IMG/VR virus record: IMGVR_UViG_2690316121_000006
Origin: a virus
Taxonomy: Duplodnaviria; Heunggongvirae; Uroviricota; Caudoviricetes
DNA length: 64,000 bases
Strand: one strand, 5' to 3'
Part shown: positions 22,015 to 52,996 of the stretch, in pieces
Position numbering within the stretch: position 1 is the first letter of the stretch
How the letters are laid out: each line of letters opens with the position of its first letter
The notes under the pieces: generated by a model
Databases searched by the model: none
What the model was told of the DNA's origin: nothing
The model's input: only the letters and a program-made list of their open reading frames with translations
Position numbers and translations under genes: made by a program

Positions 22015-23211
22015 ATGAGTGATTCCAGCCAGCTTCACAAGGTTGCTCAAAGAGCAAACAGAATGCTCAATGTTCTGACTGAACAAGTACAGTTGCAAAA
22101 GGATGAGCTACACGCGAACGAGTTTTACCAGGTCTATGCGAAAGCGGCACTGGCAAAATTGCCTCTACTGACTCGAGCGAACGTTGACTATGCCGTAAGT
22201 GAAATGGAAGAAAAGGGTTATGTTTTCGATAAACGCCCTGCTGGCTCTTCAATGAAATATGCGATGTCAATTCAGAACATCATTGACATATATGAACATC
22301 GCGGAGTGCCAAAATACCGGGATCGCTACAGCGAAGCGTATGTGATTTTCATCTCCAATCTTAAAGGCGGTGTGTCAAAAACTGTATCGACGGTTTCTCT
22401 GGCGCATGCAATGCGTGCTCACCCTCATCTTCTGATGGAAGATTTAAGGATTCTGGTTATTGACCTTGATCCGCAATCTTCAGCAACGATGTTTTTAAGC
22501 CATAAACACTCTATTGGTATCGTAAACGCAACATCTGCACAGGCTATGTTGCAGAATGTAAGCCGTGAAGAGCTGTTAGAGGAGTTTATTGTTCCTTCTG
22601 TTGTACCTGGGGTTGACGTTATGCCTGCGTCGATTGACGATGCCTTTATTGCATCCGATTGGAGAGAGCTGTGCAATGAGCATCTACCGGGTCAGAACAT
22701 CCATGCAGTCCTGAAAGAAAATGTGATTGATAAGCTGAAGAGCGATTATGACTTTATCCTCGTTGATAGTGGTCCTCACCTTGACGCCTTCCTGAAAAAT
22801 GCTTTGGCCTCGGCCAATATACTGTTTACACCTCTGCCGCCTGCAACGGTTGATTTCCACTCATCGCTTAAATACGTTGCCCGCCTTCCTGAGTTGGTGA
22901 AACTCATTTCGGATGAAGGCTGCGAGTGCCAGCTTGCGACTAACATTGGTTTTATGTCCAAGTTGAGTAACAAGGCAGACCATAAATATTGCCATAGCCT
23001 GGCTAAAGAAGTGTTCGGTGGGGATATGCTTGATGTCGTCCTCCCTCGCCTTGACGGTTTTGAACGCTGCGGCGAGTCTTTTGACACTGTTATTTCAGCT
23101 AACCCGGCAACGTATGTTGGTAGTGCTGATGCATTGAAGAACGCGCGAATTGCCGCGGAAGATTTTGCAAAAGCAGTGTTTGACCGTATTGAATTTATCA
23201 GATCTAACTGA
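22015..23211 (+). CDS. parA: type Ia partition ATPase ParA
   Basis: 398 aa; deviant Walker A ISNLKGGVSKT, N-terminal extension typical of type Ia ParA; adjacent to parB and parS. Confidence 0.9.
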   Translation: MSDSSQLHKVAQRANRMLNVLTEQVQLQKDELHANEFYQVYAKAALAKLPLLTRANVDYAVSEMEEKGYVFDKRPAGSSMKYAMSIQNIIDIYEHRGVPKYRDRYSEAYVIFISNLKGGVSKTVSTVSLAHAMRAHPHLLMEDLRILVIDLDPQSSATMFLSHKHSIGIVNATSAQAMLQNVSREELLEEFIVPSVVPGVDVMPASIDDAFIASDWRELCNEHLPGQNIHAVLKENVIDKLKSDYDFILVDSGPHLDAFLKNALASANILFTPLPPATVDFHSSLKYVARLPELVKLISDEGCECQLATNIGFMSKLSNKADHKYCHSLAKEVFGGDMLDVVLPRLDGFERCGESFDTVISANPATYVGSADALKNARIAAEDFAKAVFDRIEFIRSN

Positions 23212-23227
23212 GGAGTAAGAAACCCCC

Positions 23228-24229
23228 ATGTCAAAGAAAAACAGACCAACAATTGGGCGAACCCTTAATCCTTCAATATTAAGCGGATTTGATAGTTCTT
23301 CAGCCTCTGGCGATCGAGTCGAGCAGGTATTCAAGTTATCAACTGGTCGTCAGGCCACATTTATTGAAGAGGTAATACCTCCGAACCAGGTAGAAAGCGA
23401 TACCTTTGTTGATCAGCATAACAACGGGCGTGACCAGGCATCTCTTACGCCAAAATCATTAAAAAGTATCCGAAGCACTATTAAGCATCAGCAATTTTAC
23501 CCTGCAATAGGTGTTAGACGTGCTACAGGGAAAATTGAAATTTTGGATGGTTCCCGGCGTCGAGCTTCTGCCATCTTAGAGAACGTAGGGTTGCGGGTTT
23601 TAGTCACGGACCAGGAGATCAGCGTCCAGGAAGCGCAAAATTTAGCGAAAGACGTTCAGACAGCATTGCAGCACAGCATTCGAGAAATAGGTCTGCGTTT
23701 GATGCGAATGAAAAATGATGGGATGAGTCAAAAGGATATTGCAGCCAAAGAAGGGCTGTCTCAGGCGAAGGTCACGCGTGCTCTCCAGGCAGCGAGTGCT
23801 CCGGAAGAATTAGTCGCCCTTTTCCCTGTGCAGTCGGAATTAACCTTTTCGGACTACAAAACGCTTTGTGCTGTTGGCGACGAAATGGGGAACAAGAATT
23901 TAGAGTTTGATCAGCTTATTCAAAACATATCCCCGGAAATAAACGACATCTTATCCATTGAAGAAATGGCCGAAGATGAAGTTAAAAATAAAATCCTGCG
24001 CTTGATAACAAAGGAAGCCTCACTACTCACGGATAAAGGTTCTAAAGATAAGTCCGTAGTTACTGAATTATGGAAATTTGAGGACAAGGATCGCTTTGCA
24101 AGGAAGCGCGTGAAAGGCCGTGCATTTTCTTATGAGTTTAATCGACTTTCAAAAGAGCTACAGGAAGAACTCGACAGGATGATTGGGCATATCCTTAGAA
24201 AGAGCCTCGATAAAAAGCCGAAGCCTTAA
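23228..24229 (+). CDS. parB: partition centromere-binding protein ParB
   Basis: 333 aa; GSRRRAS ParB-box-like motif and HTH (QKDIAAKEGLSQAKVTRAL). Confidence 0.85.
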   Translation: MSKKNRPTIGRTLNPSILSGFDSSSASGDRVEQVFKLSTGRQATFIEEVIPPNQVESDTFVDQHNNGRDQASLTPKSLKSIRSTIKHQQFYPAIGVRRATGKIEILDGSRRRASAILENVGLRVLVTDQEISVQEAQNLAKDVQTALQHSIREIGLRLMRMKNDGMSQKDIAAKEGLSQAKVTRALQAASAPEELVALFPVQSELTFSDYKTLCAVGDEMGNKNLEFDQLIQNISPEINDILSIEEMAEDEVKNKILRLITKEASLLTDKGSKDKSVVTELWKFEDKDRFARKRVKGRAFSYEFNRLSKELQEELDRMIGHILRKSLDKKPKP

Positions 24230-24240
24230 ACTTTCGCCAT

Positions 24241-24320
24241 TCAAATTTCACTATTAACCTACTGTTTTTAAAGTAAATTCATCTAAAATTTCAAGGTGAA
24301 ATCGCCACGATTTCACCTTG
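24241..24320. other. partition site parS (centromere)
   Basis: ATTTCAC heptamer boxes and TCGCCA hexamer; perfect 13-bp inverted repeat CAAGGTGAAATCG/CGATTTCACCTTG (24292-24320) and AT-rich IHF-like spacer. Confidence 0.6.
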
Positions 24321-24378
24321 GATTTTACCTTCCTCCCCTACTCCCGAAAAAAATAAAAAAATTGCTTGTCACGAGAAA

Positions 24379-24403
24379 GTCAACAAGTGACTTTCAATAA
24401 AAT
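24379..24403 (+). promoter_or_regulatory. putative late promoter element (GTCAACAAGTGACTTT ... ATAAAAT)
   Basis: Shares the AACAARTGA core with four other sites; contains AAAGTCA-N5-TGACTTT inverted repeat. Confidence 0.35.
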
Positions 24404-24433
24404 CTCTTCCGAAAAGGGATTCACACAAGTGCC

Positions 24434-26161
24434 TTGTGTTTAAGGAAGAGTAAATTGAGTAACTTACGCGAATACCAGAATCGTATTGCAGATATCGCAA
24501 AACGCTCTAAAGCTGTGCTTGGCTGGGCAAGCACTGCGCAGTTCGGTACTGATAACCAATTCATTAAAGATGATGCCGCGCGTGCCGCATCTATCCTTGA
24601 AGCTGCACGTAAAGACCCGGTTTTTGCGGGTATCTCTGATAATGCCACCGCTCAAATCGCTACAGCGTGGGCAAGTGCACTGGCTGACTACGCCGCAGCA
24701 CATAAATCTATGCCGCGTCCGGAAATTCTGGCCTCCTGCCACCAGACGCTGGAAAACTGCCTGATTGAGTCCACCCGCAATAGCATGGATGCCACTAATA
24801 AAGCGATGCTGGAATCCGTCGCAGCAGAGATGATGAGCGTTTCTGACGGTGTTATGCGTCTGCCTTTATTCCTCGCGATGATCCTGCCTGTTCAGTTGGG
24901 GGCAGCTACCGCTGATGCGTGTACCTTCATTCCGGTTACGCGTGACCAGTCCGACATCTATGAAGTCTTTAACGTGGCAGGTTCCTCTTTTGGTTCTTAT
25001 GCTGCTGGTGATGTTCTGGACATGCAATCCGTCGGTGTGTACAGCCAGTTACGCCGCCGCTATGTGCTGGTGGCAAGCTCCGATGGCACCAGCAAAACCG
25101 CAACCTTCAAGATGGAAGACTTCGAAGGCCAGAATGTACCAATCCGAAAAGGTCGCACTAATATCTACGTTAACCGTATTAAGTCTGTTGTTGATAACGG
25201 TTCCGGCAGCCTACTTCACTCGTTTACTAATGCAGCTGGTGAGCAAATCACTGTTACCTGCTCTCTGAACTACAACATTGGTCAGATTGCCCTGTCGTTC
25301 TCCAAAGCGCCGGATAAAGGCACTGAGATCGCAATTGAGACGGAAATCAATATTGAAGCCGCTCCTGAGCTGATCCCGCTGATCAACCACGAAATGAAGA
25401 AATACACCCTGTTCCCAAGCCAGTTCGTTATCGCGGCTGAGCACACGGTACAGGCGGCGTATGAAGCACAGCGTGAATTTGGTCTGGACCTGGGTTCCCT
25501 ACAGTTCCGCACCCTGAAGGAATACCTGTCTCATGAACAGGATATGCTGCGTCTTCGCATCATGATCTGGCGTACTCTTGCGACCGACACCTTTGACATC
25601 GCTCTGCCGGTTAACCAGTCCTTTGATGTATGGGCAACCATCATTCGTGGCAAATTCCAGACTGTATATCGCGACATTATTGAGCGCGTTAAATCTTCTG
25701 GTGCGATGGGGATGTTTGCTGGTGCTGATGCAGCATCTTTCTTCAAACAGTTGCCGAAGGATTTCTTCCAGCCAGCCGAAGACTATATCCAGACTCCGTA
25801 TGTTCACTACATCGGTACCCTGTTCGGTAACGTGAAAGTGTACGAAGTACCTGCTGGTATTTGTAAGAACTTAACGACAGAGAACATTCAGTTCAGCTCG
25901 ATGGATGTGCTGTGCTACGTCCGTGATGAAAATCCGGGTAAAGCAGGCTTCGTGACTGGTGATGCTGTCCCGGCCATCCCGTTCCAGCATCCGACCACTC
26001 CGGCGCTGGTCAACCGTACCACGCTGTGGGGTTCGGCTATCAACGATATGCACCCACGCAACGGCGCTGATTACTTCACTCGTGTAACGCTGACAATGGC
26101 CAAAAAAGGCGGGCTTAACTTCATAAGCGGCGACACGATTGATGCCGGTGACTCTGAGTAA
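24434..26161 (+). CDS. late virion structural protein (sheath or capsid candidate)
   Basis: 575-aa ORF after the late-promoter-like motif; ORF track starts at TTG 24434, an alternative TTG at 24455 has a better RBS. Confidence 0.5.
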   Translation: MCLRKSKLSNLREYQNRIADIAKRSKAVLGWASTAQFGTDNQFIKDDAARAASILEAARKDPVFAGISDNATAQIATAWASALADYAAAHKSMPRPEILASCHQTLENCLIESTRNSMDATNKAMLESVAAEMMSVSDGVMRLPLFLAMILPVQLGAATADACTFIPVTRDQSDIYEVFNVAGSSFGSYAAGDVLDMQSVGVYSQLRRRYVLVASSDGTSKTATFKMEDFEGQNVPIRKGRTNIYVNRIKSVVDNGSGSLLHSFTNAAGEQITVTCSLNYNIGQIALSFSKAPDKGTEIAIETEINIEAAPELIPLINHEMKKYTLFPSQFVIAAEHTVQAAYEAQREFGLDLGSLQFRTLKEYLSHEQDMLRLRIMIWRTLATDTFDIALPVNQSFDVWATIIRGKFQTVYRDIIERVKSSGAMGMFAGADAASFFKQLPKDFFQPAEDYIQTPYVHYIGTLFGNVKVYEVPAGICKNLTTENIQFSSMDVLCYVRDENPGKAGFVTGDAVPAIPFQHPTTPALVNRTTLWGSAINDMHPRNGADYFTRVTLTMAKKGGLNFISGDTIDAGDSE

Positions 26162-28671: not shown

Positions 28672-29253
28672 ATGGCACCTATTCCTTATGGGGTTTACAG
28701 CCAGGCTGACGGTGTATCGCCATTTCTGAAAGTTACTTTAACGAACTCTCAGTACCAGGTTACCGGATATATCAGCCAGGGAGCGGCAATGAACATGGCC
28801 CAGAATTGGGAAGCGCCGTTTACCGGTATGTCCATGGGATCTGTTTCTGGTGCTCTGGGTGGTTTTGTGCAAGTAGGTACTGAAACAACGTCGGTTGCCC
28901 GTTGGAATAGCTTAATGGTTTGGGAAGGGGGGACACCGCCGACGTTCACGCTGCCCGTAACTTTCATTGCTTTGAACAATCCATTCATTGAAGTTTCAGG
29001 CGCTATCGCCGCGTTGACAGCCATGATTAGCCCGGAACTAAAAGCGGCCAATGTTGGTGGTCGAATCCCGGAGCGTGTGACGCTAAACATTGGTCGCCGG
29101 ATCAACATCACCGATGTCGCTATCCAGGACTTAAGTTTTGATCTCGATGCGCCAAGGGACAGTAATGGATATTTCCTGAAGAACACCGTCAACCTCCAGT
29201 TGACCGGTTCTTCGATATATAACAGCTCCGATATTGTTCGGGCGTTCCAGTAA
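28672..29253 (+). CDS. late structural protein (tail tube candidate)
   Basis: 193-aa ORF; a GC hairpin sits in the upstream gap. Confidence 0.45.
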   Translation: MAPIPYGVYSQADGVSPFLKVTLTNSQYQVTGYISQGAAMNMAQNWEAPFTGMSMGSVSGALGGFVQVGTETTSVARWNSLMVWEGGTPPTFTLPVTFIALNNPFIEVSGAIAALTAMISPELKAANVGGRIPERVTLNIGRRINITDVAIQDLSFDLDAPRDSNGYFLKNTVNLQLTGSSIYNSSDIVRAFQ

Positions 29254-29264
29254 AAGGATTTTAT

Positions 29265-29774
29265 ATGGGGCACAATAACACTAAGGGAAACCGTAAATTT
29301 ATTAAGGGCCGCTATACTGCCAACGCGGCCAAAGGCGAACGACTGGTATCTTCTGAATTCCAGCTCACTTTTGCAGGCTATGAAGATATCAGTGTACTGG
29401 TTCGTACGTCGCAAATCCCTGAAATGACTCGCGAGGATGTGGAGGACTATGGTCCGAATGGTGTGAAGTTCAACCAGCACGGACCAATTCGAAACTCTGG
29501 GGAAATCCAGGTCCAGTGCGTGGAGACTATCGAAGGCGATATTCTTCAGTTCATTAAGGATCGCATTGCGGCGAAGGACTATGTTGATATCACGATGGCT
29601 GCTACCCCTGAATCCAAATCTTCCGGGGTTAACGCTGTGACAAAAGCTGCTACAACAATTGAAATGTTGGACTGCAAAATCTACAGTGATGCAATCGACT
29701 TTAGTACCGAAGATGTGACTGCCGCTGTGCGCCCGTCACTTCGTATCGTCTACAACTGGATTGAGTGGGATTAA
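29265..29774 (+). CDS. late structural protein
   Basis: 169-aa ORF, last of the operon before a strong terminator. Confidence 0.45.
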   Translation: MGHNNTKGNRKFIKGRYTANAAKGERLVSSEFQLTFAGYEDISVLVRTSQIPEMTREDVEDYGPNGVKFNQHGPIRNSGEIQVQCVETIEGDILQFIKDRIAAKDYVDITMAATPESKSSGVNAVTKAATTIEMLDCKIYSDAIDFSTEDVTAAVRPSLRIVYNWIEWD

Positions 29775-29793
29775 GAGTCATCCCTTGTATTTT

Positions 29794-29818
29794 AAAGCTC
29801 CTTCGGGAGCTTTTTTTA
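29794..29818 (+). terminator. intrinsic terminator
   Basis: AAAGCTCC-TTCG-GGAGCTTT followed by TTTTT. Confidence 0.65.
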
Positions 29819-29909
29819 TAACCTTTTTATATAAAAATGCATCGATAACATTGTCTGGAGTTTTATGTTAGATTATTAATGTTCTAATAAACTACAATTA
29901 TTGAGGTAG

Positions 29910-30542
29910 ATGTTTGTGCCTGTACTGTTAAAGGGGGACTCTAAAATGGCTGTGATTCCAATGTCGTACTCCCCGGGTACTGTCGCTCGTCGATTTTCGA
30001 TCCTGGACGGAGTTACCATCCAGGGTGTGCTTTACCAGGTTATATGGGATTCCAAAACCCCATTTGCTGCCGTAATAGAGGCTGCTCCTTCTGTTATCGA
30101 TGGTGATATGCGCCATAAGGTTGTCGCTACTCTTGAACTTCAACGTCGCCCACAGCTTGAAGGCGTACTGGTGAGGAAGTTCTGGGAAGATAACGATGTT
30201 GCCCAGATTGAAGGTATCGTGGTTGATGGAATCGTCCGGGATGTCGGTTTAGCCACTTTTGTTTATGAAACCGTAGCTTCAAAAGCCGGAGTTGTTTTGC
30301 TAAGTGACAATGAGCAATACGAAGGCGGAAAGGCTCTTTGGCAGCACATCGCTCGTCGTTCTTCTGAACTAAAAGTTTTTATCCTGGACACCGATACTGC
30401 TCAGTATTACCCATTTGATGGCGAACGTGTTTGCTATGACGGGAAAAGTATTCCTGAATCCGAGATATGGAGTGAACATCCGGATCGAAGTAAGCATGGG
30501 GTTGTTCTTGTCGCAGAATCCATAACTGGAAAGGCGGCATAG
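29910..30542 (+). CDS. hypothetical protein
   Basis: 210-aa ORF flanked by AT-rich non-coding sequence. Confidence 0.45.
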   Translation: MFVPVLLKGDSKMAVIPMSYSPGTVARRFSILDGVTIQGVLYQVIWDSKTPFAAVIEAAPSVIDGDMRHKVVATLELQRRPQLEGVLVRKFWEDNDVAQIEGIVVDGIVRDVGLATFVYETVASKAGVVLLSDNEQYEGGKALWQHIARRSSELKVFILDTDTAQYYPFDGERVCYDGKSIPESEIWSEHPDRSKHGVVLVAESITGKAA

Positions 30543-30721
30543 CAGTAAAAAATTCCTTGCTCCTTGACAGAGGAGAGGATTAATCTAAGTACGCTAAGCA
30601 TAGGTATGGCCCCGGTTAATGTTAAGCGTTGTGCGGGACGCATAATGTTTACTGGGGCTTTCTTTTATCTATTTTGGGATAATCCTGAATTCCGTAGTAT
30701 TTGGCATCGGCTGCGGCTACA

Positions 30722-30973
30722 TCAGCGTTTGACTCTATTTCTATAGAAATCACCTGGAAGGGTGAATACCCACATCAGAAGAAACGTTGCAGCAAACATG
30801 ATCCCTAATGGCCAGAATATGCCAAAAAAAATCATTATCCAAAAACGATCCCACCAGGCCATTTCTGCATTAGCTCGCAAAATATATCGACTTAATGCGT
30901 ATATCAGCCCACCGATTAGTATATAGATGGGAATAGATACCAGGATAGTCATAGCGTTAGTCTCAATGAGCAT
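30722..30973 (-). CDS. small integral membrane protein
   Basis: 83 aa with two or three hydrophobic helices; downstream of the Ail/Lom-like gene. Confidence 0.4.
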   Translation of the reverse strand: MLIETNAMTILVSIPIYILIGGLIYALSRYILRANAEMAWWDRFWIMIFFGIFWPLGIMFAATFLLMWVFTLPGDFYRNRVKR

Positions 30974-31032
30974 AACGAATATCGCCAGAGCAATGTATAA
31001 ATCCCTCTGCGCCGGGCAGAGGGACTAAATAG

Positions 31033-31548
31033 TTAAAATCGGTAACCGACACCAAGCATCCAAATGCTATTGCTTAGATCACCTGGTTTAGAACGTTCAT
31101 ACGAGAGATCAACTGCAAACTGCGGAGCTGGGTTAAATTGAAGCCCAAGTCCATAAGCAAAATCGGTTCCAAAGCCAGCATATGACTGTCCATTCAGTTT
31201 TGCTGTTGCATCCGCATGGCTTAAACCCACCAAACCGTATGCACTCAGCAATTCATTGAATCTGTATGATGGACCAAAAGTAAATGAGGCATACTCAACC
31301 TTGGCTTTGGCGGCATTCCATAGGTTTGTGTTTGACTTTTCGTAAGTGAGCGAAGCTAATCCACCCCACGTAGGATCCATTTCGTAGCGATATTTAATAT
31401 TCACGCCTTTTGGATCTTTTATATCTCCGCCTTTAATCGTTGCGCTTCCTTGGGCAAAGTCTAAAGAAAGAGTGTGCTGATATGCGGAGGCAGTCCCAGC
31501 AACCCCCAAGGCACATGCCAGAAGGGCCGTTAAAACTACTTTTTTCAT
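31033..31548 (-). CDS. Ail/Lom/PagC-family outer-membrane beta-barrel protein
   Basis: 171 aa; signal peptide, NIKYRYE, GLQFNP...DLSYE and C-terminal LGVGYRF, collinear with lambda Lom as recalled. Confidence 0.85.
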   Translation of the reverse strand: MKKVVLTALLACALGVAGTASAYQHTLSLDFAQGSATIKGGDIKDPKGVNIKYRYEMDPTWGGLASLTYEKSNTNLWNAAKAKVEYASFTFGPSYRFNELLSAYGLVGLSHADATAKLNGQSYAGFGTDFAYGLGLQFNPAPQFAVDLSYERSKPGDLSNSIWMLGVGYRF

Positions 31549-31643
31549 GGAAAAAGTTACCTATAAAAACGTTAAAAATAATACTGGTGACAAAATAGTG
31601 TGTATTGAGCGTTAAATACACGTAAAGATTCTATCATTCGCGA

Positions 31644-32486
31644 TCAGCCGCGAAAACCAGTTGGAATATAAAATTCCTTTTCTTTTCTGGTAGATAGGAC
31701 CATATCCAGAGCCTCGTTTACCGTCATGCAATGCGGCAGATTATCGAAGTTTGATATCCCGCCCATATCAGGAGAACGCTTGTTCTTCAGGTAAGCATAT
31801 TTCCGCGCTGCCGCCTCTACTTTCTGCTTGAACTCATGTTTTTGAGCGCGTTTTTTGGATAACCGCAGATTGTCAGCCTTTGCTTTTGCCTCAGCGATCC
31901 AGGAAGTCAAATTTTTGAGCCTGGTCGTTCCGGCACCGCCGGAAACTGATCTTTTTGTTTTTTTAATTTGTGACTTCTTATTCTTTATTGCCACGTCATC
32001 CTGACAGGGGGAGGGGGTATCATTTTGACATGGGGGTGTGGATAAAAAATCAAATAAAGCCAATGTCTTAGCGAGAACAGCTTTAACCTTTGTTGCGGCT
32101 GAAGAGATCTTTAATTTGCTTTCAATTAGCGCATTTTTGGCTTGTTGAGCAAAGGCTAAAAAGGATGGTGTAAACCGGTACAGGTTAGCGCGGCGTTCAC
32201 GGTGATCGCCGATAATAATCTCTACCGACAGGATTCCTTTGTTTACAGCTTCACGGAATGCGCGAACGACGGTTGATTGGCTATAACCAGTTTCTGCCGC
32301 GATCATGCGGTGAGGCTTGTGAATGAAGTATTCACTGGTTGTTGCCGCGAGATTTGCACATTGCGACAGGATATGCCCGGCACTACGGGATAGACCGGAG
32401 TGTGTTACAAAGCAGGCTAATTCATAGCCAGAAAAAGTAAAATCGCTCATCGTTATACAGCTCAGGAAAGTGACTTTAGCCAGCAT
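31644..32486 (-). CDS. HTH protein, lytic replication protein RepL-like
   Basis: 280 aa with HTH (IAAETGYSQSTVVRAFREAVNKGIL); second gene of the operon headed by the KilA-N gene; the RepL assignment is by position and size only. Confidence 0.5.
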   Translation of the reverse strand: MLAKVTFLSCITMSDFTFSGYELACFVTHSGLSRSAGHILSQCANLAATTSEYFIHKPHRMIAAETGYSQSTVVRAFREAVNKGILSVEIIIGDHRERRANLYRFTPSFLAFAQQAKNALIESKLKISSAATKVKAVLAKTLALFDFLSTPPCQNDTPSPCQDDVAIKNKKSQIKKTKRSVSGGAGTTRLKNLTSWIAEAKAKADNLRLSKKRAQKHEFKQKVEAAARKYAYLKNKRSPDMGGISNFDNLPHCMTVNEALDMVLSTRKEKEFYIPTGFRG

Positions 32487-32515
32487 TGCAATGCTGGTGG
32501 TTCTTACTACGTCTG

Positions 32516-33316
32516 TTAGCGCGTAGCTGCGACAGGTACCAGCACACCAGCATCAAGCAATCGCTTCATTAGCCACTGCTGACCTTTGCCGGTTATACGA
32601 GTCGTGAAAGAAATCCTGCTTCCGTTGCTTGTGTCGATCACGGTTTCTTTGAGGGTGAAGTACCCACGGGATATGTATTCTTGTTTGGGGACGTTCCTGC
32701 GTTCACCGGTTGCGATCAGAATTCCGTTATCACGCAACCAGGTGAAGAGATAGTTTTGGCCCAGGCCGAGCACTTTGGCATAGTTGCCGATTAGAACCCC
32801 GCTGGCGGTAGCAACGCGTTCGGCGAATTCGACTTTAGGTGCATCCATAAGCATTTTTTGCTCCAGCCGTTGCTTTTGCTCTGCCAGGTCGGCAGCCAAA
32901 CGGAGAGCTTCAGGGAGACTCTGCGGAATAGCAGGTTGTAATCTTCCGGCTCGATAGTCGATAAATGTCTGGTTTACCTTCAGCCGAAATGCGGGAGAAA
33001 TCCAGCCTGCGTACTCCACAGCGAGCAATTCATGGGCAAAAGTGCCGCCGCCACGGCCTTCGAACGAAACTATGCACTTCTGCATAGTTTCTTTTTCAAG
33101 CTCTTCGATGAGCTGTTTGGCTGACAGCGTTCTTAGCCATTGAGCTGGCGCTTTATGGGCACCGAGTCCGCTCGCTCTGTGTAGAGCATTAAGGTTGTAA
33201 CGGCCAGCGCGGTCGGTCGTAATTTCAACACCACAAATAACAGGCAGAGTGGTTGAAGGATCGACATTTTGATGAAGGTTTGATATATTCATATCCGCAT
33301 TGAATGTTTGTTGCAT
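32516..33316 (-). CDS. kilA: KilA-N domain protein with KilA-C/antirepressor-type C-terminus
   Basis: 266 aa; N-terminal KilA-N pattern, C-terminal half paralogous to the C-terminus of 33481-34524. Confidence 0.65.
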   Translation of the reverse strand: MQQTFNADMNISNLHQNVDPSTTLPVICGVEITTDRAGRYNLNALHRASGLGAHKAPAQWLRTLSAKQLIEELEKETMQKCIVSFEGRGGGTFAHELLAVEYAGWISPAFRLKVNQTFIDYRAGRLQPAIPQSLPEALRLAADLAEQKQRLEQKMLMDAPKVEFAERVATASGVLIGNYAKVLGLGQNYLFTWLRDNGILIATGERRNVPKQEYISRGYFTLKETVIDTSNGSRISFTTRITGKGQQWLMKRLLDAGVLVPVAATR

Positions 33317-33385
33317 TTTTTCTCCAAATTTGCATCAACCTTCAATCACCAGCTCGAAATGGTGATTCTTTGCACTTAGAAAACG

Positions 33386-33402
33386 AAATTTATTAGAGCA
33401 AA
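33386..33402 (-). promoter_or_regulatory. C1-type operator (16/17)
   Basis: Plus AAATTTATTAGAGCAAA; reverse strand reads TTTGCTCTAATAAATTT, about 70 bp upstream of the KilA-N gene start. Confidence 0.55.
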
Positions 33403-33445
33403 TTTTTCTGACTCGATCCAGATCGGGTTGGACGATCTGCTCAGA

Positions 33446-33476
33446 AACCTGCCAGTTTGCTGGCAGGTTTTTTTCT
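33446..33476. terminator. hairpin with T-tract (orientation ambiguous)
   Basis: AACCTGCCAG-TTTG-CTGGCAGGTT followed by TTTTTTTC on the plus strand, between the antirepressor gene and the operator. Confidence 0.4.
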
Positions 33477-33480
33477 TTTG

Positions 33481-34524
33481 TTAACCTATTGCTACTGGTT
33501 TTAACAAACCAGCATCAAGTAGCTTGCGAGTTAACCACTGCTGGCCTTTACCCGTTAATTGTGGCGTCAGCCGTATCTGATAGCCATTTTCATCATCCAG
33601 CACCACTTCTTTCACCGTGAAATACCCGGCGTTAATGTACTGCTGGCGCGGTACGTTTTTGCGCGCACCAAAAGCCATGAGAATGCCGTTCTGGCGCAAC
33701 CATGAGAAAAGGGCGTTTTGCTTAAGTCCAACGACCTTTGCAAAGTTACCGATCAGGATTCCATTAGCCACTGATACCCGGTCGGCAAAATCGACTTTAG
33801 GTGCTGCGGCCACCAGCTGTTGTTCCAGATGCATTTTCTGTTCTGCCAACTCGGCAGCCAGGCGTAGGGCTTCTGGTAATGTTTGGGGGATCGATGGGGT
33901 AGGGGAGTTTGCCTGCTGTAATTCTTCCAGTTTGTCGATCAGCGAACGGCGGACCGCTTTTGACTCGCGCGCGGCGACTCGCAGGGCTTGTTTGTAGGTC
34001 ATGGTTATGACCTCAAAAGAGCGCCCGGCCCTTGTGCCATGGGATTTTACGAAAGTTTCGTAAAATTCCCCATCAAGTTCATCCTTAATTCTATTGAGAA
34101 AATCGTTATTGCGGATCTCATTTTCCCCACATAGCTTGCGCGCATCATTAACCATCTTTAACAGCGTCTGGCTGTCGATTGTGTCTCCAGTGTTGGAGAT
34201 AACATTCACAGCTGGTGATGGCGTAGCTGACGTAACAGGTGCTGTTTTTTCAACATTCAAATTATTACCGGTCATTCTATGTGCCTCCTTTCTCATTTCT
34301 GCTGCCACTGTTGCGTAACGTAGACGTCCTTGTTCAATCAAATAATCCCTGATCTCGGCTATCAGTAGCTTGTTGATCACAGCCTTATCTGTTCGGGTAT
34401 AAAAACGTCTGGTTATCATGAAATAGTTGGCAATTGCGCCGGGGATCTCCCGTGTCGGCATACAGATTGTATGCAAGGCGATCGCTTCGGCTATTTCATT
34501 ACGGGTGACGAGAGGTGTTTTCAT
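33481..34524 (-). CDS. antirepressor (Ant-like; N-terminal Rha-type region, C-terminal KilA-C)
   Basis: 347 aa; C-terminal ...PQTLPEALRLAAELAEQK...GNFAKVVGL... paralogous to the 266-aa protein; start overlaps the stop of the upstream small ORF. Confidence 0.6.
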   Translation of the reverse strand: MKTPLVTRNEIAEAIALHTICMPTREIPGAIANYFMITRRFYTRTDKAVINKLLIAEIRDYLIEQGRLRYATVAAEMRKEAHRMTGNNLNVEKTAPVTSATPSPAVNVISNTGDTIDSQTLLKMVNDARKLCGENEIRNNDFLNRIKDELDGEFYETFVKSHGTRAGRSFEVITMTYKQALRVAARESKAVRRSLIDKLEELQQANSPTPSIPQTLPEALRLAAELAEQKMHLEQQLVAAAPKVDFADRVSVANGILIGNFAKVVGLKQNALFSWLRQNGILMAFGARKNVPRQQYINAGYFTVKEVVLDDENGYQIRLTPQLTGKGQQWLTRKLLDAGLLKPVAIG

Positions 34525-34742
34525 AAACCCCCCTGAACGTCGGCAGAGAAGGGGAGGTTCCAGTAACTAAGTGAATTGCGCGAGTCAGTAGAAAAACGGG
34601 CAGTAAAAATGCAGGGGCCATCAGGCAATTGAGAGCGTGCTTCGTCTTCTGTTGCTGCGATAACGAAGTGATAGTGGTGTTTTTTACAGGAATAGAAACG
34701 CCAGATAAATTCAGGGCGCGCGCAAGGATTGGCATTAACCAT
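34521..34742 (-). CDS. small protein, Icd-like by position
   Basis: 73-aa ORF overlapping the antirepressor start, downstream of a structured non-coding leader. Confidence 0.4.
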   Translation of the reverse strand: MVNANPCARPEFIWRFYSCKKHHYHFVIAATEDEARSQLPDGPCIFTARFSTDSRNSLSYWNLPFSADVQGGL

Positions 34743-34794
34743 AGTTACGGCCTCACAATCAGGTTTAACAACCTGCTACCCGCTGCTAAACAGG

Positions 34795-34875
34795 TGGCAG
34801 GACGTGACGGGGTTAGCAGACTGGCGATTGTGAAACCAGCAGGCCGAAGCCTCCCCATCACGCCCCACCATAATT
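34795..34875 (-). ncRNA. candidate c4-like antisense RNA (boundaries approximate)
   Basis: ORF-free leader containing a GGCUUCGGCC tetraloop hairpin and a UCUGCUAAC element complementary to GUUUAGCAG repeats that flank it upstream and just before the small ORF. Confidence 0.3.
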
Positions 34876-35056
34876 TGGGCGTAACGCGGTTTTACGGACA
34901 CAAAAATACCGCAATATCGGATATCTGCGGCTGTCCGCACAATCATTCAGGCTGCTAAACCCGGTCGCAGAATTTGCTACGACAGCGGAACTATAAGCCT
35001 GAACGATTAAAAGGTCAATATGATGCGAAAAGATAGCATTCGCGACTTAAAAACAC

Positions 35057-35073
35057 AAATTTATTAGAGCATT
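35057..35073 (-). promoter_or_regulatory. C1-type operator (16/17), Op51-like
   Basis: Plus AAATTTATTAGAGCATT; sits at the head of the reverse immunity operon and 70-100 bp upstream of the forward AT-rich module. Confidence 0.55.
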
Positions 35074-35169
35074 GATTGTATAATAAATACACAAATGGAG
35101 CTAATAACCTCTTTTTTTTAAAGGCGAAAATATGTACCCTAAATGGGGTATAAGGCAGGTGAGGTTTTA

Positions 35170-35808
35170 ATGAGAAAACTATTACTACCGTTATTATTTA
35201 TGGCTGGGACTGTTAATGCAGCATCAAGTGTAAAGGAGATTTGTACAGATTATACGAAATACCTTGGGCACGTTTACGGTTTCACTGTCAGTCAGGACGG
35301 CAAAATGAAAAAAGCTCTCCAGAATGATATGACACGCTTAAGTTTGTCTGAAGCAATGGTTCAGCAAGAAATGTATAAGGTTGCGACAGATGATGCTGCA
35401 AAAATGTATTATTCGAAATTTCTTAATCCTAATCTTAATGAATATAACCGTTCGGCTTTTAATCAGATGGTAGCGTATTGTGAAACTGCACCAGATATGA
35501 TGATTCCTAGTTGGGCTGTATTAGTGGCTAATGGAAAAATTCGCAAAGAAGACCAAGGAAAATCTTTAAGTAGCTATATAAATAGCGAACAATTTCTGAA
35601 TGCGCGTGGCATGCGTACTCAAAATACTCAAGGTGCGCTTGAGCGGAGGGCTTTAGGGATCGCTGATACAAATGATACTGATAATTTGCCCCCTGGAATA
35701 AAAAAATGTGTTGAAACTAAGTTAGCTCTAATGAAACGGGACAGCCCTAACATTCCTGTTTCACAACTTACCGCTACGGCAACTAGTCTCTGCAAAGACG
35801 GGCTTTAA
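35170..35808 (+). CDS. secreted protein, unknown function
   Basis: Start MRKLLLPLLFMAGTVNA-A (Sec signal) with AGGTGAGG RBS; ORF track begins 27 nt earlier; AT-rich codon usage. Confidence 0.5.
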   Translation: MRKLLLPLLFMAGTVNAASSVKEICTDYTKYLGHVYGFTVSQDGKMKKALQNDMTRLSLSEAMVQQEMYKVATDDAAKMYYSKFLNPNLNEYNRSAFNQMVAYCETAPDMMIPSWAVLVANGKIRKEDQGKSLSSYINSEQFLNARGMRTQNTQGALERRALGIADTNDTDNLPPGIKKCVETKLALMKRDSPNIPVSQLTATATSLCKDGL

Positions 35809-35872
35809 ATGTAAAGATATTCGAAGAAATGTTATTTTAAGGCGTTTTATCTGTGACTGGAGATAGCTAATC

Positions 35873-36223
35873 ATGTCATCTGAACATGTTCGTAAAGGTG
35901 TAACAAATGCGAAATTCAATGAAGAGCAATCTAATATTCTCTTTATTGAAATAGGAATTCTGTCAATACTGATAGGTTTAATGTCTAGATCATGGTGGGC
36001 CTTTGGCGGTTCTTTTCTTGGACTGATTTTTAGTTTAAGAATAAAATTTCTGGCAATACCATTGATGATTGTCTTTAGCTTAGTATGGGGAGCTATTGGC
36101 TATAGTATTGGTACTTTGTTTGAATCAACAGCAGCAAGTATTGTTTTGGGGGTAATTGCTTTCCTGAGTGGCTTGGGTACTCATTTTGCTGCCGTGCAAT
36201 GGGCAAATGATATTGCAGAATAG
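35873..36223 (+). CDS. small polytopic inner-membrane protein
   Basis: 116 aa, three or four hydrophobic helices. Confidence 0.5.
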   Translation: MSSEHVRKGVTNAKFNEEQSNILFIEIGILSILIGLMSRSWWAFGGSFLGLIFSLRIKFLAIPLMIVFSLVWGAIGYSIGTLFESTAASIVLGVIAFLSGLGTHFAAVQWANDIAE

Positions 36224-36245
36224 TTACAGATAAGAAGCGAAAAGA

Positions 36246-36722
36246 ATGAATATGAGATGGTTTTTATTATTTGTATCGTTAGTTTCAGCAGGATCATTTG
36301 CAAAAGTTGATCCTCTACAATGGAATGTAATTGAAGAGAGAGGGGGAAGAGAATATACAATCCATAATCATAATGGTGATAAGATAAGTTTTTTATGTGA
36401 TATGGGATTCATGTATGGTTCACCAGATAGTGCAGGTAGTTTAGGCTTGTTGCTAAGTTCGTCGAATAATAAAAAGGAGTATAATGCTGACAAGAATAAA
36501 ATAGTATTAACTATAGATGGTGAGCAATATCCTTTTAGCAATCTTGGGTCAATGGTTGGAGATTCTTGGTGGTATGCCTTTTGGCAAGATGCAGCAGATT
36601 CAAATGCTAATATGATTGATGCTTATGTTGATAATGAAAAAATTGCTACATTCCCTCTTTCTGGGCTAAGTAAGTTGTATCAACAAGCCAAAATGGATGG
36701 ATGTATTAAACGGGGCAAATGA
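36246..36722 (+). CDS. secreted protein, unknown function
   Basis: 158 aa; N-terminal MNMRWFLLFVSLVSAGSFA signal peptide. Confidence 0.5.
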   Translation: MNMRWFLLFVSLVSAGSFAKVDPLQWNVIEERGGREYTIHNHNGDKISFLCDMGFMYGSPDSAGSLGLLLSSSNNKKEYNADKNKIVLTIDGEQYPFSNLGSMVGDSWWYAFWQDAADSNANMIDAYVDNEKIATFPLSGLSKLYQQAKMDGCIKRGK

Positions 36723-36763
36723 TCTTTCTGTGTTAAAGACTAACGCAACCAATAAAACATTGG

Positions 36764-37831
36764 TTGCGTAATATTCTATTATATAGATGGAATAATATGA
36801 CCAAAATTACTAATTCTAATGAGTTGGAGTTACTGTACAAACAGTCAGTAATCATTCCATCATACAAAGATCACGTAGCGATTTTGCAAAAACAATTAGG
36901 AATAGAAAAATATTCTTTTCAAAATATGACAAGATTGAATAGACAAGCTGTAATTAGTAACTCTCTTCGGAAACAATTGGCTAGTATGCCGAACTTGGCT
37001 GGAATAGGCAGCAAGTATCGTGAACATATCGCGATTTTACAGAAACAGACTCAGGCTCTTTTTCCTCATGACGCAAATAAATACATTCAAATGCTAAGGA
37101 AACAGGCAGAAATTGCTATGCCGTTGCGAAACCAGTTAGAGATACTTAATAAACAGGCTGGTTTAAATAACATGCAGGCGATGCTTAATGAATTAAGACA
37201 ACATGTAAATTATAAGACAGATTTTAATAATGGAATAGCACTATTATTAAAACAATATACTCTGGCAAAAGGTTCTCCATTGCATCAAGTAATGGAGCAA
37301 GGTCTTTCATCTATTGCACAGGCTTATGCTGAAGGTGCTACTGAAACATCACACACGAAAAGTAATGTTCAAAATAAAGGATTAAATAAATATAGCTCAA
37401 AGTTTGTTGATTCATTTAAAGAGCTTCCTTATCCACTGCAATGGTTACTAATGGTTATATTTTCTCAAGTTGTGTTTGGTGCTTTTATTGATTACGGAAA
37501 AGAGAAAACCTTGCTGGGAATACACAAGGCAGAATCATATGTTATATCGCTGTTTGAGGATAAACCAATATCAAAACAACAAATAATTAAAGAAAACAAA
37601 GAAATTAGTTGGGAAGATCTCAATGGTTTTCGTTTTATAACTGGTGAGAACGTAAGATTACACGTCAGTCCGTCTATAAATAGTGAGGTTATTGAATGCA
37701 TTGGCAAAAATACTATAGTGGCTGTTTTAGATAAAAAAGATCGCCAATGGCTTTTCGTGCAGGTTAAATCAGGGGACGAGTTTATTACTGGATGGATTAC
37801 ACGAACATACACAAAGCCTCTTAAGGCTTGA
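36764..37831 (+). CDS. repeat-TM-SH3b-like protein
   Basis: 355 aa: about 22-aa periodic repeats with LxKQ cores, one TM helix (LQWLLMVIFSQVVFGAFIDYG), C-terminal bacterial SH3-like segment (...VRLHVSPS...GDEFITGWITRTYTKPL). Confidence 0.5.
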   Translation: MRNILLYRWNNMTKITNSNELELLYKQSVIIPSYKDHVAILQKQLGIEKYSFQNMTRLNRQAVISNSLRKQLASMPNLAGIGSKYREHIAILQKQTQALFPHDANKYIQMLRKQAEIAMPLRNQLEILNKQAGLNNMQAMLNELRQHVNYKTDFNNGIALLLKQYTLAKGSPLHQVMEQGLSSIAQAYAEGATETSHTKSNVQNKGLNKYSSKFVDSFKELPYPLQWLLMVIFSQVVFGAFIDYGKEKTLLGIHKAESYVISLFEDKPISKQQIIKENKEISWEDLNGFRFITGENVRLHVSPSINSEVIECIGKNTIVAVLDKKDRQWLFVQVKSGDEFITGWITRTYTKPLKA

Positions 37832-37928
37832 ATTTTATCACCGTATCTTGGGGCTGGTTGTTGATGACGATGTGCTACTTGACGTACTTGAGTTTTTTAA
37901 CGCAGCATCTGAAATGTGCAGACTGACC

Positions 37929-38551
<623 letters not shown>

Positions 38552-46216: not shown

Positions 46217-46294
46217 CAATCACCCCGTCCGCAGGGCGGGGTGACAAGTTACTTCTCTTACAATGAGGCTTCACAACATTGATTAGGGAAAATC

Positions 46295-46729
46295 ATGTCT
46301 GACGTCTCAACAAACCTCTATAAGAGTCAGTTGTTGGACTATTACTATCAGCGGCGCGCTGAATCGTCCATTAACAAAGGCTCTCGATTTTTAATCAGCA
46401 AGGCCGTTTTCGGTACCAGTTCACTGGTTACTAAGAAAGGAGATGGCACTTATGAGATTGGAGAACTGCCAAAGGCTTTCGATCTGGCAGAACTGACCAG
46501 TCAATTTTGCACCATCAACCTCGTCCCAACCTACTCAGGCGGGATAATTACTGTCCGAATGGACCTTGATCAAAGCCAGTTGCAGGAAGGGAAAAACTAC
46601 CCATTCAACACTCTGGTTGTTCTGGATAACGAGAACAAGCCAATCGCCATTATTTGTGTCCAGGAAGACTCGCTGTATGTGGGCAAAACATATACCGCAG
46701 TTATGGCCATAAACACGACTACAGCATAA
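46295..46729 (+). CDS. tail-fibre-proximal protein
   Basis: 144-aa ORF directly upstream of the fibre gene. Confidence 0.4.
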   Translation: MSDVSTNLYKSQLLDYYYQRRAESSINKGSRFLISKAVFGTSSLVTKKGDGTYEIGELPKAFDLAELTSQFCTINLVPTYSGGIITVRMDLDQSQLQEGKNYPFNTLVVLDNENKPIAIICVQEDSLYVGKTYTAVMAINTTTA

Positions 46730-46740: not shown

Positions 46741-49700
46741 ATGAATGACGTTACAGTTGTCACATCGGTTACTTACCCATCACCCGAGTCGTTGGCTCTG
46801 GTGGCTGATGTGCAATACCACGAACCATATCTGTCAGCCGCGCTAAACCGAAAATTCAGGGGGATTGTTGACCCGGGATTTTATGCCGGTTTCTTACCTA
46901 AGCCTGGCGGTGGGATGAACCTGTTAATCACCTCAGTGGATGGTGATAAAACCGCAGGCGCGGCGTCGGTGGATATTGGTGAATTCTACCAGGTAACTAT
47001 TCAGCAACGTAAGGATATTTCTCTTGCACTTAGTGCAGGCAAGAAATATGCAATTGTGCTGAAGGGAAGATACCTCCTTGGAGAAGATACCTATCAGGTG
47101 AATACCGCGTCACATATTCATGCGGCTGAATTTGTTTCCAGAACCTATACCGATTCATATCAGTTAGGAGATGGGGAGCTGCTTGTTTGTACGGTGAATA
47201 TCCCTGCTGGTGTATCTGCCATTACCCAGGAGATGATTGATACATCCGAGCGTATTAACCGCACGATCGGCATTGATATTTCAGACTCTGTAACCAGTAG
47301 CAGAAGTGATGTTGCGGCAAGTTCGCTGGCAGTTAAAAAAGCCTACGATCTGGCGAAAAGTAAGTATACGGCGCAGGATGCAAGCACAACGCAAAAGGGA
47401 TTAGTTCAGCTCAGTAGCGAAACTAACAGCGACAGCGAAACAATGGCTGCTACCCCTAAAGCAGTTAAGTCTGTAAAAGATCTTGCTGATACCAAAGCGC
47501 CAATAGAAAGCCCGAGTCTGACAGGAACGCCAACCGCGCCGACGGCAGCGCAAGGTACAAATAGCACGCAGATCGCAAATACAGCCTTTGTTAAGGCAGC
47601 TATAACGGCACTTATCAACGGCGCACCTGGCACACTGGATACGCTTAAAGAAATAGCTGCTGCGATCAATAACGACCCGAATTTCAGCACAACTATCAAC
47701 AATGCTCTGGCTCTTAAAGCTCCTTTAGCAAGTCCTGCATTAACGGGAATACCTACTGCGCCTACCGCTGCACAGGGTACGAATAACACGCAGATTGCTA
47801 CGACCGCTTATGTAAGAGCTGCCATATCCGCATTGGTTGGTTCATCACCAGAAGCTCTTGATACCCTGAATGAGCTTGCCGCAGCACTTGGTAATGACCC
47901 TAACTTTGCGACAACAATGACAAATGCGCTGGCAGGCAAACAGCCTCTGGATGCAACTTTAACCGCGCTTGCTGGTCTTGCTACAGGTGCAAATAAATTG
48001 CCGTACTTTACCGGTACAGACACTGTTTCTCAGACTGACTTAACGTCAGTCGGTCGCGATATTCTGGCCAAAACAAGCGTCCTTGCTGTTATCCAATACC
48101 TTGGTTTAAGAGAACTCGGTACCAGCGGTGAAAAGATCCCCCTGTTGAGCACGGCTAACACATGGAGTGCACGCCAGACTTTCAACGGCGGGATCACCGG
48201 GGCGCTGGCAGGGAATGCCGACACCGCGACGAAATTGAAAACAGCACGCTCGATTGGCGGTGTGGCATTTGATGGCTCGGCCAATATCAATCTTCCAGGT
48301 GTAAATACAACAGGTAACCAGAACACCACGGGGAATGCTGCTACCGCGACAAAACTTGCGACGGCAAGAAACATCAACGGTGTTAAATTTGATGGTTCTG
48401 TGGACATTTCGATACCAACAATTACGTCCAGAGGGCGTGTTACTGCGCTCACCGGTACAACACAAGGTGCTGCTACTGGATTGCAAATGTATGAGGCGTA
48501 CAACAACGGCTATCCTTCTGCTTACGGGAATGTGCTTCATCTTAAGGGCGCAACGGCAGTTGGTGAAGGTGAGTTGTTCATAGGTTGGAGCGGTACAAGT
48601 GGCGCTCATGCACCTGTACATGTACGTTCGCGACGAGATACTGATACAGCCAGTTGGTCAGAGTGGGCGCAGGTCTACACATCGAAGGATTCCATCCCTG
48701 GTGTAAATACCACGGGCAACCAGAACACAACCGGAAACGCGGCGTCTGCAACGAAATTACAAACGGCAAGAACTATTGGTGGTGTTTCATTTAATGGCAC
48801 CGCAAACATCGACCTGCCGGGCGTGAATAAAACAGGCAATCAGAGCACTACCGGCAATGCAGCTACAGCCACAAAACTGCAAACAGCACGCACCATTAAT
48901 GGGGTTTCATTTGACGGAACGGCTAATATTTCGCTGTCACCGGCAAATATTGGTTGCCCGGCATCTCCTACTGGTTGGCTTGAAACAGGTGATAATGGAG
49001 CATCAATAACAACAGAGCAATTAGTGACTCTGCTACGAGATAATGGTGCTTTTAATGCAAAGGTATGGATAGCGCGTTGTGCTTGGGCGTATGCAAATAG
49101 TGCATCCATACCAGACAGCGAAACAGGATGCGGCATTATTCCACTGGCTGGCGCAGTTATTGAGGTGTTTAATAACGGCAGTAGCTCAAACAATTATACG
49201 ATTCGTATAACAACGGCAACAACGACAAGCGTTTCTGGCGCACTCACTAATGCGGAGTTTGTCTATGTGTTTAACGGGACGAGCTATTCACCAGGATGGC
49301 GCAGAGCGTATAACACTAAAAACAAACCTACTGCGGCTGATGTCGGAGCTTTACCACTATCTGGAGGAGCGTTAACTGGCGGATTAACTGCTGCTGGCGA
49401 GATTATTTCCAAATCGGCGAATGGTCTTCGTATTGCCTATGGCAACTATGGATTCTTTATCCGAAACGATGGTTCAAGCACATACTTCATGTTGACCGCC
49501 TCGGGTGACAATCTTGGAACATGGAATAGTTTAAGACCGCTTACCATTAACAACGCCAACGGGGCTGTTTCAATCGGTAATGGACTCAATGTAACTGGCG
49601 ATATAAGAACCAATGCATGGGTATATGCAAACAGATTTTCTGTTAATAGCAGCTCAGGTTCTTGGATTAGTATGCGAGATCAAAATGTTATTTTTGGTCT

Positions 49701-50154: not shown

Positions 50155-50165
50155 TGAGAGAGCAT

Positions 50166-50681
50166 ATGAATAACTTTAAAAATTTCGCACCATATACGCC
50201 AGGCGAAGATAAAAGAGAGCTTGTTGATGCAGGAGTTTTATTCCTGTTGGATGAAAACGGTAACGACTGGTATGAATGTCAGAAGTTATTTTCGGAATGT
50301 ACAAAGGTAATTGCGTATGATAGCAACAACATCGTTGTCAGCATTACAGATGATGTCTCAACCCTTTGGCCCATAGGATTATCTGTAGCAGAAGTGGATG
50401 GTTTACCTGAAGATGTAGATATCAACGGTGGTTGGGTGTTTAGAGACAACTCTGTTGTTAAACGCATATATTCTGATACGGAGTTACAACAGCAAGCTGA
50501 ATCAAAAAAGGCCGCCTTGCTTTCACACGCCGAATCAGTAATTGTAACTCTTGAGCGGGCGGTTAAATTGAATATGGCAACAGATGAGGAACGAGCTAAA
50601 CTGGAAGCATGGGAGCATTATAGCGTGTTGGTTTATCGCGTAGATACAGCTAAACCAGAATGGCCAGAAGAACCGGAGTGA
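50166..50681 (+). CDS. tail fibre assembly protein
   Basis: ATG 50166 (ORF track 50115); MNNFKNFAPYTPGEDKRELVDAGVLFL... paralogous to the reverse-strand copy. Confidence 0.6.
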   Translation: MNNFKNFAPYTPGEDKRELVDAGVLFLLDENGNDWYECQKLFSECTKVIAYDSNNIVVSITDDVSTLWPIGLSVAEVDGLPEDVDINGGWVFRDNSVVKRIYSDTELQQQAESKKAALLSHAESVIVTLERAVKLNMATDEERAKLEAWEHYSVLVYRVDTAKPEWPEEPE

Positions 50682-50682
50682 A

Positions 50683-50714
50683 GTGAAGGCCCGATTTATC
50701 GGGCCTTCACTTTT
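50683..50714. terminator. bidirectional intrinsic terminator
   Basis: GTGAAGGCCCGAT-TT-ATCGGGCCTTCAC with TTTT, between convergent assembly genes. Confidence 0.55.
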
Positions 50715-51270: not shown

Positions 51271-51276
51271 TAATAA

Positions 51277-51978: not shown

Positions 51979-51996
51979 GAAGTATGTGCTTGAACC
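51879..51996. repeat. right inverted repeat of the invertible segment
   Basis: Reverse complement of 49471-49588; outer flank TGTGCTTGAACC-AA-GGTTTAGGATTG (51985-52010) resembles Hin-family crossover sites. Confidence 0.75.
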
Positions 51997-52972: not shown

Positions 52973-52996
52973 CAACAAATGACCGGTTGAGAAGTT
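52973..52996 (+). promoter_or_regulatory. putative late promoter element (GCAACAAATGACC...)
   Basis: Fifth site carrying the AACAAATGAC core, about 45 bp upstream of the holin-like gene. Confidence 0.3.

Follow-up and report, generated by a model that had tools for sequence, protein, structure and literature searches.

The elements shared by the upstream regions of the structural and lysis operons in this 64,000-nucleotide stretch of DNA (hereafter the window) can be identified with high confidence as late promoters of the bacteriophage P1 type, activated by Lpa together with SspA, in a P1-like plasmid prophage. The promoter class is already known, and the P1 reference genome carries annotations for these sites; the class, its activator Lpa and the co-activator SspA have been on record since the early 1990s and 2003. 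The sequence-only reading had proposed an activator-dependent class of late promoters from a recurring AACAARTGA word followed by a −10-like hexamer, and this proposal was borne out, as the sites coincide with annotated P1 late promoters either exactly or with one to two substitutions. Overall, the earlier observation was partly to largely confirmed, the corrections being to the register of the motif and to the fifth of its five sites.

The P1 GenBank record (AF234172) contains 11 late promoters (LPs/Ps, LPdar, LPlyz, LP26, LPpmgL, LPsit, LP23, LPpro, LPmat, LPhot and LPpac), each with a 9-bp '−22 region' and a −10 element within a 19-bp feature (24 bp for LPhot). The 9-bp inverted repeat common to the 11 P1 late promoters is the Lpa binding site (PMC10695390). 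According to the passage of PMC1891329 that cites Hansen et al. 2003, Lpa is a sequence-specific DNA-binding activator whose partner is the RNA polymerase-associated host protein SspA. Escherichia coli SspA acts as a co-activator with Lpa (PMC1891329, PMC8201110), and both proteins are needed by the late genes (PMC8201110, PMC8198154). Lpa binding, the requirement for SspA and the start-site positions are thus taken from the literature, and the late-promoter consensus from GenBank annotation and secondary papers; sequence identity, positional orthology, enrichment, the absence of −35 elements, late-operon placement and conservation were established here.

The window was identified as a P1-like (Punavirus) plasmid prophage because it is colinear with P1 and matches plasmid records. 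By megablast of the whole window, it follows P1 AF234172 from 82006 to 19221 in reverse orientation with 94–98.7% identity, the colinearity being broken by non-homologous segments at window positions 19653–21916, 29816–31708, 35278–37932, 48245–51989 and 60795–61480. A 2-kb query at the flagged site, upstream of gene 23, matched P1, P7, SJ46, RCS47 and other Punavirus records with 99.2–99.5% identity. Matches to part of the window were found in approximately 820 plasmid records, most of them from E. coli, and the best was the IncY plasmid CP056621.1. The proteins encoded by the first late genes 26, 23, pmgC, R, lydA and lyz are 98.4–100% identical to their P1 counterparts.

Some modules differ from those of P1. 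The tail-fibre gene S (46741–50154) has just 69% identity to P1 S, the invertible C-segment region (48245–51989) is mostly non-homologous to that of P1, and sit has 88% identity; the host-range module therefore differs from the P1 one. At 60795–61480, the neighbourhood of P1 IS1 and isaA/isaB (P1 ∼21740–24246) is mostly missing or replaced, and the alignable part of isaA corresponds only to P1 21747–22531.

The activator gene had not been identified in the window, and this holds: a search for Lpa in the window gave no match (best tblastn E = 0.86). The window stops ∼8 kb short of the P1 lpa position, as lpa lies at 89991–90443 in P1, ∼8 kb past the left end of the window. In the closest plasmid relative, CP056621.1, a 'Late promoter-activating protein' with 99% identity to P1 Lpa is encoded ∼12.5 kb past the left end. 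From these relatives, we infer that lpa is present in the genome to which the window belongs.

Architecture and placement of the late promoters

The promoters share a 22-bp unit composed of (A/G)AC, a 9-bp −22 box (consensus AAGTGACTT, a near-palindrome of the form AAGT-N-ACTT), a 4-bp spacer and a −10 hexamer of the form TANNNT. At all six forward sites the spacer is 4 bp long, and the −10 hexamers match TATAAT at four or five of six positions. In contrast, no −35 sequence with at least four of six matches to TTGACA was found at a spacing of 16–18 bp at any of the six, and a sigma-70 scan of 24200–24500 returned 0 promoters. Each of the six forward promoters stands before the opening gene of an operon for tail, head, tail-fibre or lysis functions, on the strand of that operon. 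The features are listed in Table 1, where the predicted starts were derived by taking the centre of the box as −22, as the name of the annotation implies.

Table 1. Late promoters and related motif copies in the window. Positions are those of the window unless P1 (AF234172) is named; scores are from the position weight matrix (PWM).
Element	Position	Strand	−22 box or sequence	−10 hexamer	Predicted start	P1 counterpart	Score (bits)	First gene (start; nt from −10 end to start codon)	Further genes or location
LP23 (flagged site)	24382–24403	+	AAC, then AAGTGACTT (24385–24393); spacer TCAA	TAAAAT (24398–24403)	24411	58825–58843, 'predicted late promoter LP23', identical	26.6	23, major capsid (24455; 51)	22, 21 and downstream genes
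LP26	3501–3522	+	AAATGACTA (3504–3512)	TAAAAT (3517–3522)	3530	78485–78503, 'late promoter LP26', ortholog	24.7	26 (3552; 29)	25, 7, 24, 6, 5 (baseplate and tail)
LPpmgL	3494–3512	−	TAGTCATTT, the 9-bp box of LP26 on the other strand	AAAATT (3499–3494)		78495–78513, 'late promoter LPpmgL'		pmgL (3405)	− strand, divergent from LP26
LPsit	37932–37953	+	AAATGACAA	TAGAAT (37948–37953)	37961	46608–46626, 'late promoter LPsit', ortholog	19.6	pmgC (37985; 31)	tub, pmgB, sit, pmgA, bplA, 16
LPs (Ps)	46243–46264	+	GAC, then AAGTTACTT (46246–46254); begins GACAAGTTAC	TACAAT (46259–46264)	46272	38318–38336, 'late promoter LPs', ortholog	26.7	R (46295; 30)	S, U (tail-fibre genes)
LPdar	52989–53010	+	GAG, then AAGTTACTT (52992–53000); sequence GAGAAGTTACTTTGCATACCAT	TACCAT (53005–53010)	53018	31212–31230, 'late promoter LPdar', identical	20.4	lydA, holin (53039; 28)	lydB, hdf, darA and downstream genes
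LPlyz	62230–62251	+	AAGTGATTT (62233–62241)	TATCCT (62246–62251)	62259	20969–20987, 'late promoter LPlyz', identical	24.1	lyz, lysozyme (62339; 87)	lydD, lydE
Copy at 52974	52974–52982	+	AACAAATGA (9-mer)			copy present			lydC–lydA spacer, 15 bp upstream of the LPdar 22-mer
Gene 7 22-mer	5206–5227	+	AACAAGTGACTGGTGATAACCT			76801, identical, no promoter annotation	21.1		46 bp into gene 7 (5160–5888)
lydA-internal hit	53301–53322	+	AACGAGTGAATATCGATAGCAT			30921, identical	16.0		within lydA, 64 bp upstream of lydB (53365)

Comparison with P1 showed the same 22-bp architecture upstream of the same operons, with sequences that are identical or 1–2 bases apart. The −10 hexamer of LP26 is TAAAAT in the window and TAGAAT in P1; the box of LPsit is AAATGACAA in the window and AAATGACTA in P1; and LPs has one change in the spacer. 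LPs, the top PWM hit of the window, is the classically studied P1 late promoter, and the P1 record cross-references its −22 and −10 boxes to an earlier sequence entry. LPpmgL has its −22 region in common with LP26, in P1 as in the window, and its −10 element reads AATATT in P1 and AAAATT here. It is the weakest member of the class, scoring 10.6 bits even in P1.

The distance from the promoters to the operons had been described as always 30–60 bp. This is roughly correct, the distance between the end of the −10 hexamer and the start codon ranging from 28 to 87 nt. The coordinates given for the sites likewise required a small correction: the sites are real and their true starts lie 1–3 bp further to the right.

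These observations are consistent with the following sequence of events. Host sigma-70 RNA polymerase alone would make poor use of late promoters that have no −35 element. Upon induction or infection, C1 repression would be released and Lpa (gp10) would be made from its gene outside the window. Lpa would then read the −22 box and, with SspA, activate initiation ∼7–8 nt downstream of the −10 hexamer. The operons switched on in this way would be 26–5 (baseplate/tail), 23–pmgF (capsid/sheath), pmgC–16 (tail tube/tape measure), R–S–U (tail fibres), lydA–darA (holin/internal head proteins) and lyz–lydE (lysozyme), together with the divergent pmgL unit. For annotation, the analysis marks the window as a P1-like plasmid prophage and places seven late promoters, with the operons they serve, at exact coordinates.

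Motif counts and additional copies

The AACAARTGA word occurs seven times in the window, where 1.54 copies would be expected. The six copies on the + strand start at 3501, 5206, 24382, 37932, 52974 and 62230; the single copy on the − strand (AACAAATGA, at 52528) lies within the coding sequence of cin and was for that reason rejected as a promoter element. Requiring the 9-mer to be followed 6–9 bp later by TANNNT left five matches (3501, 5206, 24382, 37932 and 62230), compared with 0.03 expected; none of the shuffled sequences reached five, and the gap between the 9-mer and the hexamer was invariably 7 bp. A PWM built from ten P1 late promoters, applied with a 16-bit threshold, gave seven hits above 16 bits in the window versus 0.16 expected, every one of them on the + strand, the one that encodes the late genes.

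The 9-mer is a frame-shifted view of the promoter, made up of the three flanking bases (A/G-A-C) and the first six bases of the 9-bp −22 box. By the PWM of the ten P1 promoters, the flanking A-C carries as much information as the box. The conservation of the flanking (A/G)AC thus equals that of the annotated 9-bp box, which refines the description of the element.

The claim that the 9-mer is accompanied by a −10 hexamer at five sites stands for four of them (3501, 24382, 37932 and 62230) and falls for the copy at 52974, which has no −10. The list was also incomplete. The composite match at 5206 had gone unlisted, and both LPs (46243) and the divergent LPpmgL had been missed, LPs because its sequence (GACAAGTTA) does not fit AACAARTGA.

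At 52974, the hexamer at the −10 distance is AGAAGT, which has two of six matches to TATAAT, and the site fails the composite pattern. LP26 and LPsit both begin with its 10-mer AACAAATGAC (52974–52983). This copy may be a chance occurrence, a remnant or vestige, or an auxiliary Lpa box.

The 22-mer within gene 7 fits the composite pattern and scores above both LPdar and the LPsit of the window. In Cronobacter phage JK004 the corresponding sequence (CACAAATGACCGGTGATACGCT) is only partly kept: most informative positions are retained, but it scores below 13 bits. Judged by its sequence, the gene 7 element is a candidate for an internal late promoter that would serve genes 24, 6 and 5, but it may also be a coding-sequence coincidence. 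The scan also returned the weaker hit within lydA that is listed in Table 1.

Conservation in relatives and competing explanations

The scan of genome contigs for relatives yielded five loci. Cronobacter phage JK004, whose capsid protein is 81% identical to that of the window, has PWM hits upstream of its 23, R, 26, pmgC and lyz homologues, the last of these being a variant of LPlyz. JK004 also has hits ahead of its pacA and prt homologues; these correspond to late promoters beyond the window. In pairwise alignments with JK004, the 22-mer was the main conserved block at five of the six promoter regions; LPdar had no recognisable counterpart, and at LPsit the downstream leader was conserved too. 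LP23 forms a conserved island in an intergenic region that has otherwise diverged. In a Pantoea contig with a capsid protein 77% identical to that of the window, a variant (AACATATCACTTTCCATAAAAT) lies 73 nt before the gene 23 homologue, at the same distance as in the window. LP23, which is not mapped and appears in the P1 record as 'predicted', is therefore supported by conservation in diverged relatives.

Upstream of the capsid genes of phage D6 and of an Enterobacteriaceae contig (capsid proteins 44–52% identical), there was no PWM match, so that by this measure the motif could not be traced outside the group of P1, JK004 and Pantoea. The motif thus belongs to the P1 lineage and is not a general one.

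A scan of viral contigs for pmgC returned only relatives with 98–99% identity, which inform the upstream boundary of LPsit and not covariation. Across 77 P1-like viral contigs, the conserved DNA starts exactly at ACAAATGAC and is preceded by at least five upstream sequences that are unrelated to one another. These junctions amount to a natural deletion series, and nothing upstream of ∼−27 is therefore needed at LPsit. In the window, the DNA upstream of LPsit is unrelated to the P1 sim region.

The occurrence of at least five different sequences at this junction in P1-like contigs also marks it as a hotspot for cargo exchange. In the window, the low-GC segment 35278–37932 (35% over 36001–38000) is unrelated to P1 and stands in for the greater part of the sim region; on its right it meets P1-like DNA exactly at the first base of the LPsit 22-mer. 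The segment encodes + strand open reading frames, one of them of 355 aa. In the closest plasmid, a wider query of 29000–38500 covered genes annotated as encoding an SH3-domain protein and an outer-membrane beta-barrel protein.

Could the elements instead be ordinary sigma-70 promoters, constitutive or under C1 control, in which the motif is incidental or serves as a non-standard substitute for a −35 element and no dedicated activator is involved? The good −10 hexamers would suit this explanation, and the P1 record predicts overlapping sigma-70 promoters near LP23 (P1 23 and P2 23) as well as sigma-70 promoters upstream of pmgC and lyz. Moreover, several Lpa-controlled genes also have sigma-70 promoters (PMC8201110). 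However, a −35 element at usable spacing is found at none of the six sites, and the motif occupies −27 to −18, a region where sigma-70 makes no sequence-specific contact. In addition, genetics and biochemistry in the literature assign the box to Lpa (PMC10695390, PMC1891329). We consider this explanation improbable for the sites as a class. Given the overlapping promoters predicted in P1, there may nevertheless be some Lpa-independent expression of gene 23.

Even less probable is that the box is an operator at which C1 or another immunity protein silences the late operons in the lysogen. A near-palindromic box is typical of the operators of dimeric repressors, and a C1 operator-like sequence (ATTGCACTAATAATT) is present at 3463–3477, ∼25 bp from LP26/LPpmgL. 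Yet the C1 operator consensus, an asymmetric 17-bp sequence (ATTGCTCTAATAAATTT), bears no relation to AAGTGACTT, which excludes a C1 operator on sequence grounds, and the three C1 operator-like matches (3463–3477, 13794–13808 and 17316–17330) all lie clear of the late promoter boxes. The box has, moreover, been assigned to Lpa (PMC10695390). Because the promoters have no −35 element, activation rather than repression would be needed.

Finally, a short A-rich word might recur by chance, or might reflect coding or compositional bias, and have no regulatory meaning. This would suit the copy without a −10 at 52974 and the two of seven copies located in coding sequence (one at 5206, in gene 7, and one at 52528(−), in cin, where the word encodes part of the conserved recombinase N-terminus). 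As an explanation of the whole set it is refuted statistically by the excess of both the 9-mer and the composite over expectation; the fixed 7-bp spacing and the intergenic sites on the late-gene strand that are kept in JK004 amid diverged flanks also speak against it.

P1-type late promoters activated by Lpa and SspA thus remain the preferred reading, and they can be set beside other activation systems. Positive control of morphogenesis and lysis genes is exerted by gp55/gp33 in T4, C in Mu, Ogr/Delta in P2/P4 and Q in lambda. The late promoters of T4, Mu and P2/P4 have no functional −35 element. In the T4 late switch sigma-70 is replaced, and the late promoter is TATAAATA; Mu C and P2 Ogr bind further upstream, at ∼−30 to −55, and contact RNA polymerase directly; and lambda Q acts at elongation, by antitermination. 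The P1 box differs from these in being centred at −22, in adjoining the −10 element and in requiring SspA. The T4 late sequence TATAAATA was not present among the −10 hexamers of the late promoters in the window. The point about positive control is made in general terms in PMC10695390.

Another parallel is the Francisella MglA–SspA–PigR system, for which P1 Lpa/SspA has been cited as a precedent (PMC1891329). There too, an SspA-family protein bound to RNA polymerase provides the contact surface for a DNA-binding activator. In contrast to the P1 system, it serves a host virulence regulon rather than a phage late switch, and its activator and DNA site are presumably unrelated.

Shine–Dalgarno complements at the late promoters

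We noted that several late promoters carry a complement of the Shine–Dalgarno sequence at or just after the −10 hexamer, upstream of the predicted start, which pairs with the site of the first late gene. At LPsit (37944–37979) the pairing forms an 11+3-bp hairpin (z = −6.4) with the −10 hexamer in its left arm, and one compensatory change from G:C to A:T is seen in JK004; as an alternative to an RNA hairpin, this sequence could be a palindromic operator for a protein. At LPdar (53013–53032), CCTCCT pairs with AGGAGG. At LP23 (24404–24450), CTCTTCC pairs with GGAAGAG, and both arms are altered in JK004. Within JK004 (L007), the pattern occurs at LPs (with a 14-bp stem), LP26 and LPpac; complements in JK004 lie upstream of gene_4, gene_12, gene_19 and gene_44.

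Using real gene starts as the null, four of nine promoter families from P1 and the window satisfied the joint criterion, as did 11.9% of the controls (p ∼0.015), a modest enrichment. The complement was missing at LPlyz, LPpro and LPmat, and in two relatives, L011 and L012, that of LP23 has not been retained. Given its absence at LPlyz, LPpro and LPmat, the idea that late promoters in general have a leader hairpin was rejected.

Because the complement lies upstream of the predicted start, the occluding hairpin would be found only in transcripts that read through the promoter. Read-through RNAs of lysogenic or early units (from par into 23, from the cargo or sim region into pmgC, and from cin/lydC into lydA) would form the hairpin and be translationally silent, and only Lpa-initiated transcripts, starting inside or past the 5′ arm, would be translated. 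The joint proposal, that late promoters are built into the arms of hairpins hiding the Shine–Dalgarno sequence and that the gene 7 22-mer is a twelfth late promoter, is a tentative one, and we lean against it.

A precedent exists in T4 gene e and I-TevI, where a late promoter lies within the 5′ arm of a hairpin that masks the ribosome binding site (PMC3014915). The arrangement at LPsit, LPdar and LP23, and at LPs, LP26 and LPpac of JK004, is similar. In contrast to the T4 cases, the P1-like phages present a sequence pattern with predicted starts that is not found in every promoter or relative. The gene e logic has apparently not been described for P1. If the Shine–Dalgarno complements are functional, they would account for the way in which a plasmid prophage keeps read-through transcription from giving leaky production of holin and structural proteins.

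Upstream of LP23, a 15-pair inverted repeat followed by TTTT is present at 24290–24322. This terminator-like stem was rejected as a part of the promoter, since it matches the ParB-box inverted repeat within the annotated P1 parS centromere. The repeat could also restrain transcription that runs on from the par operon into gene 23.
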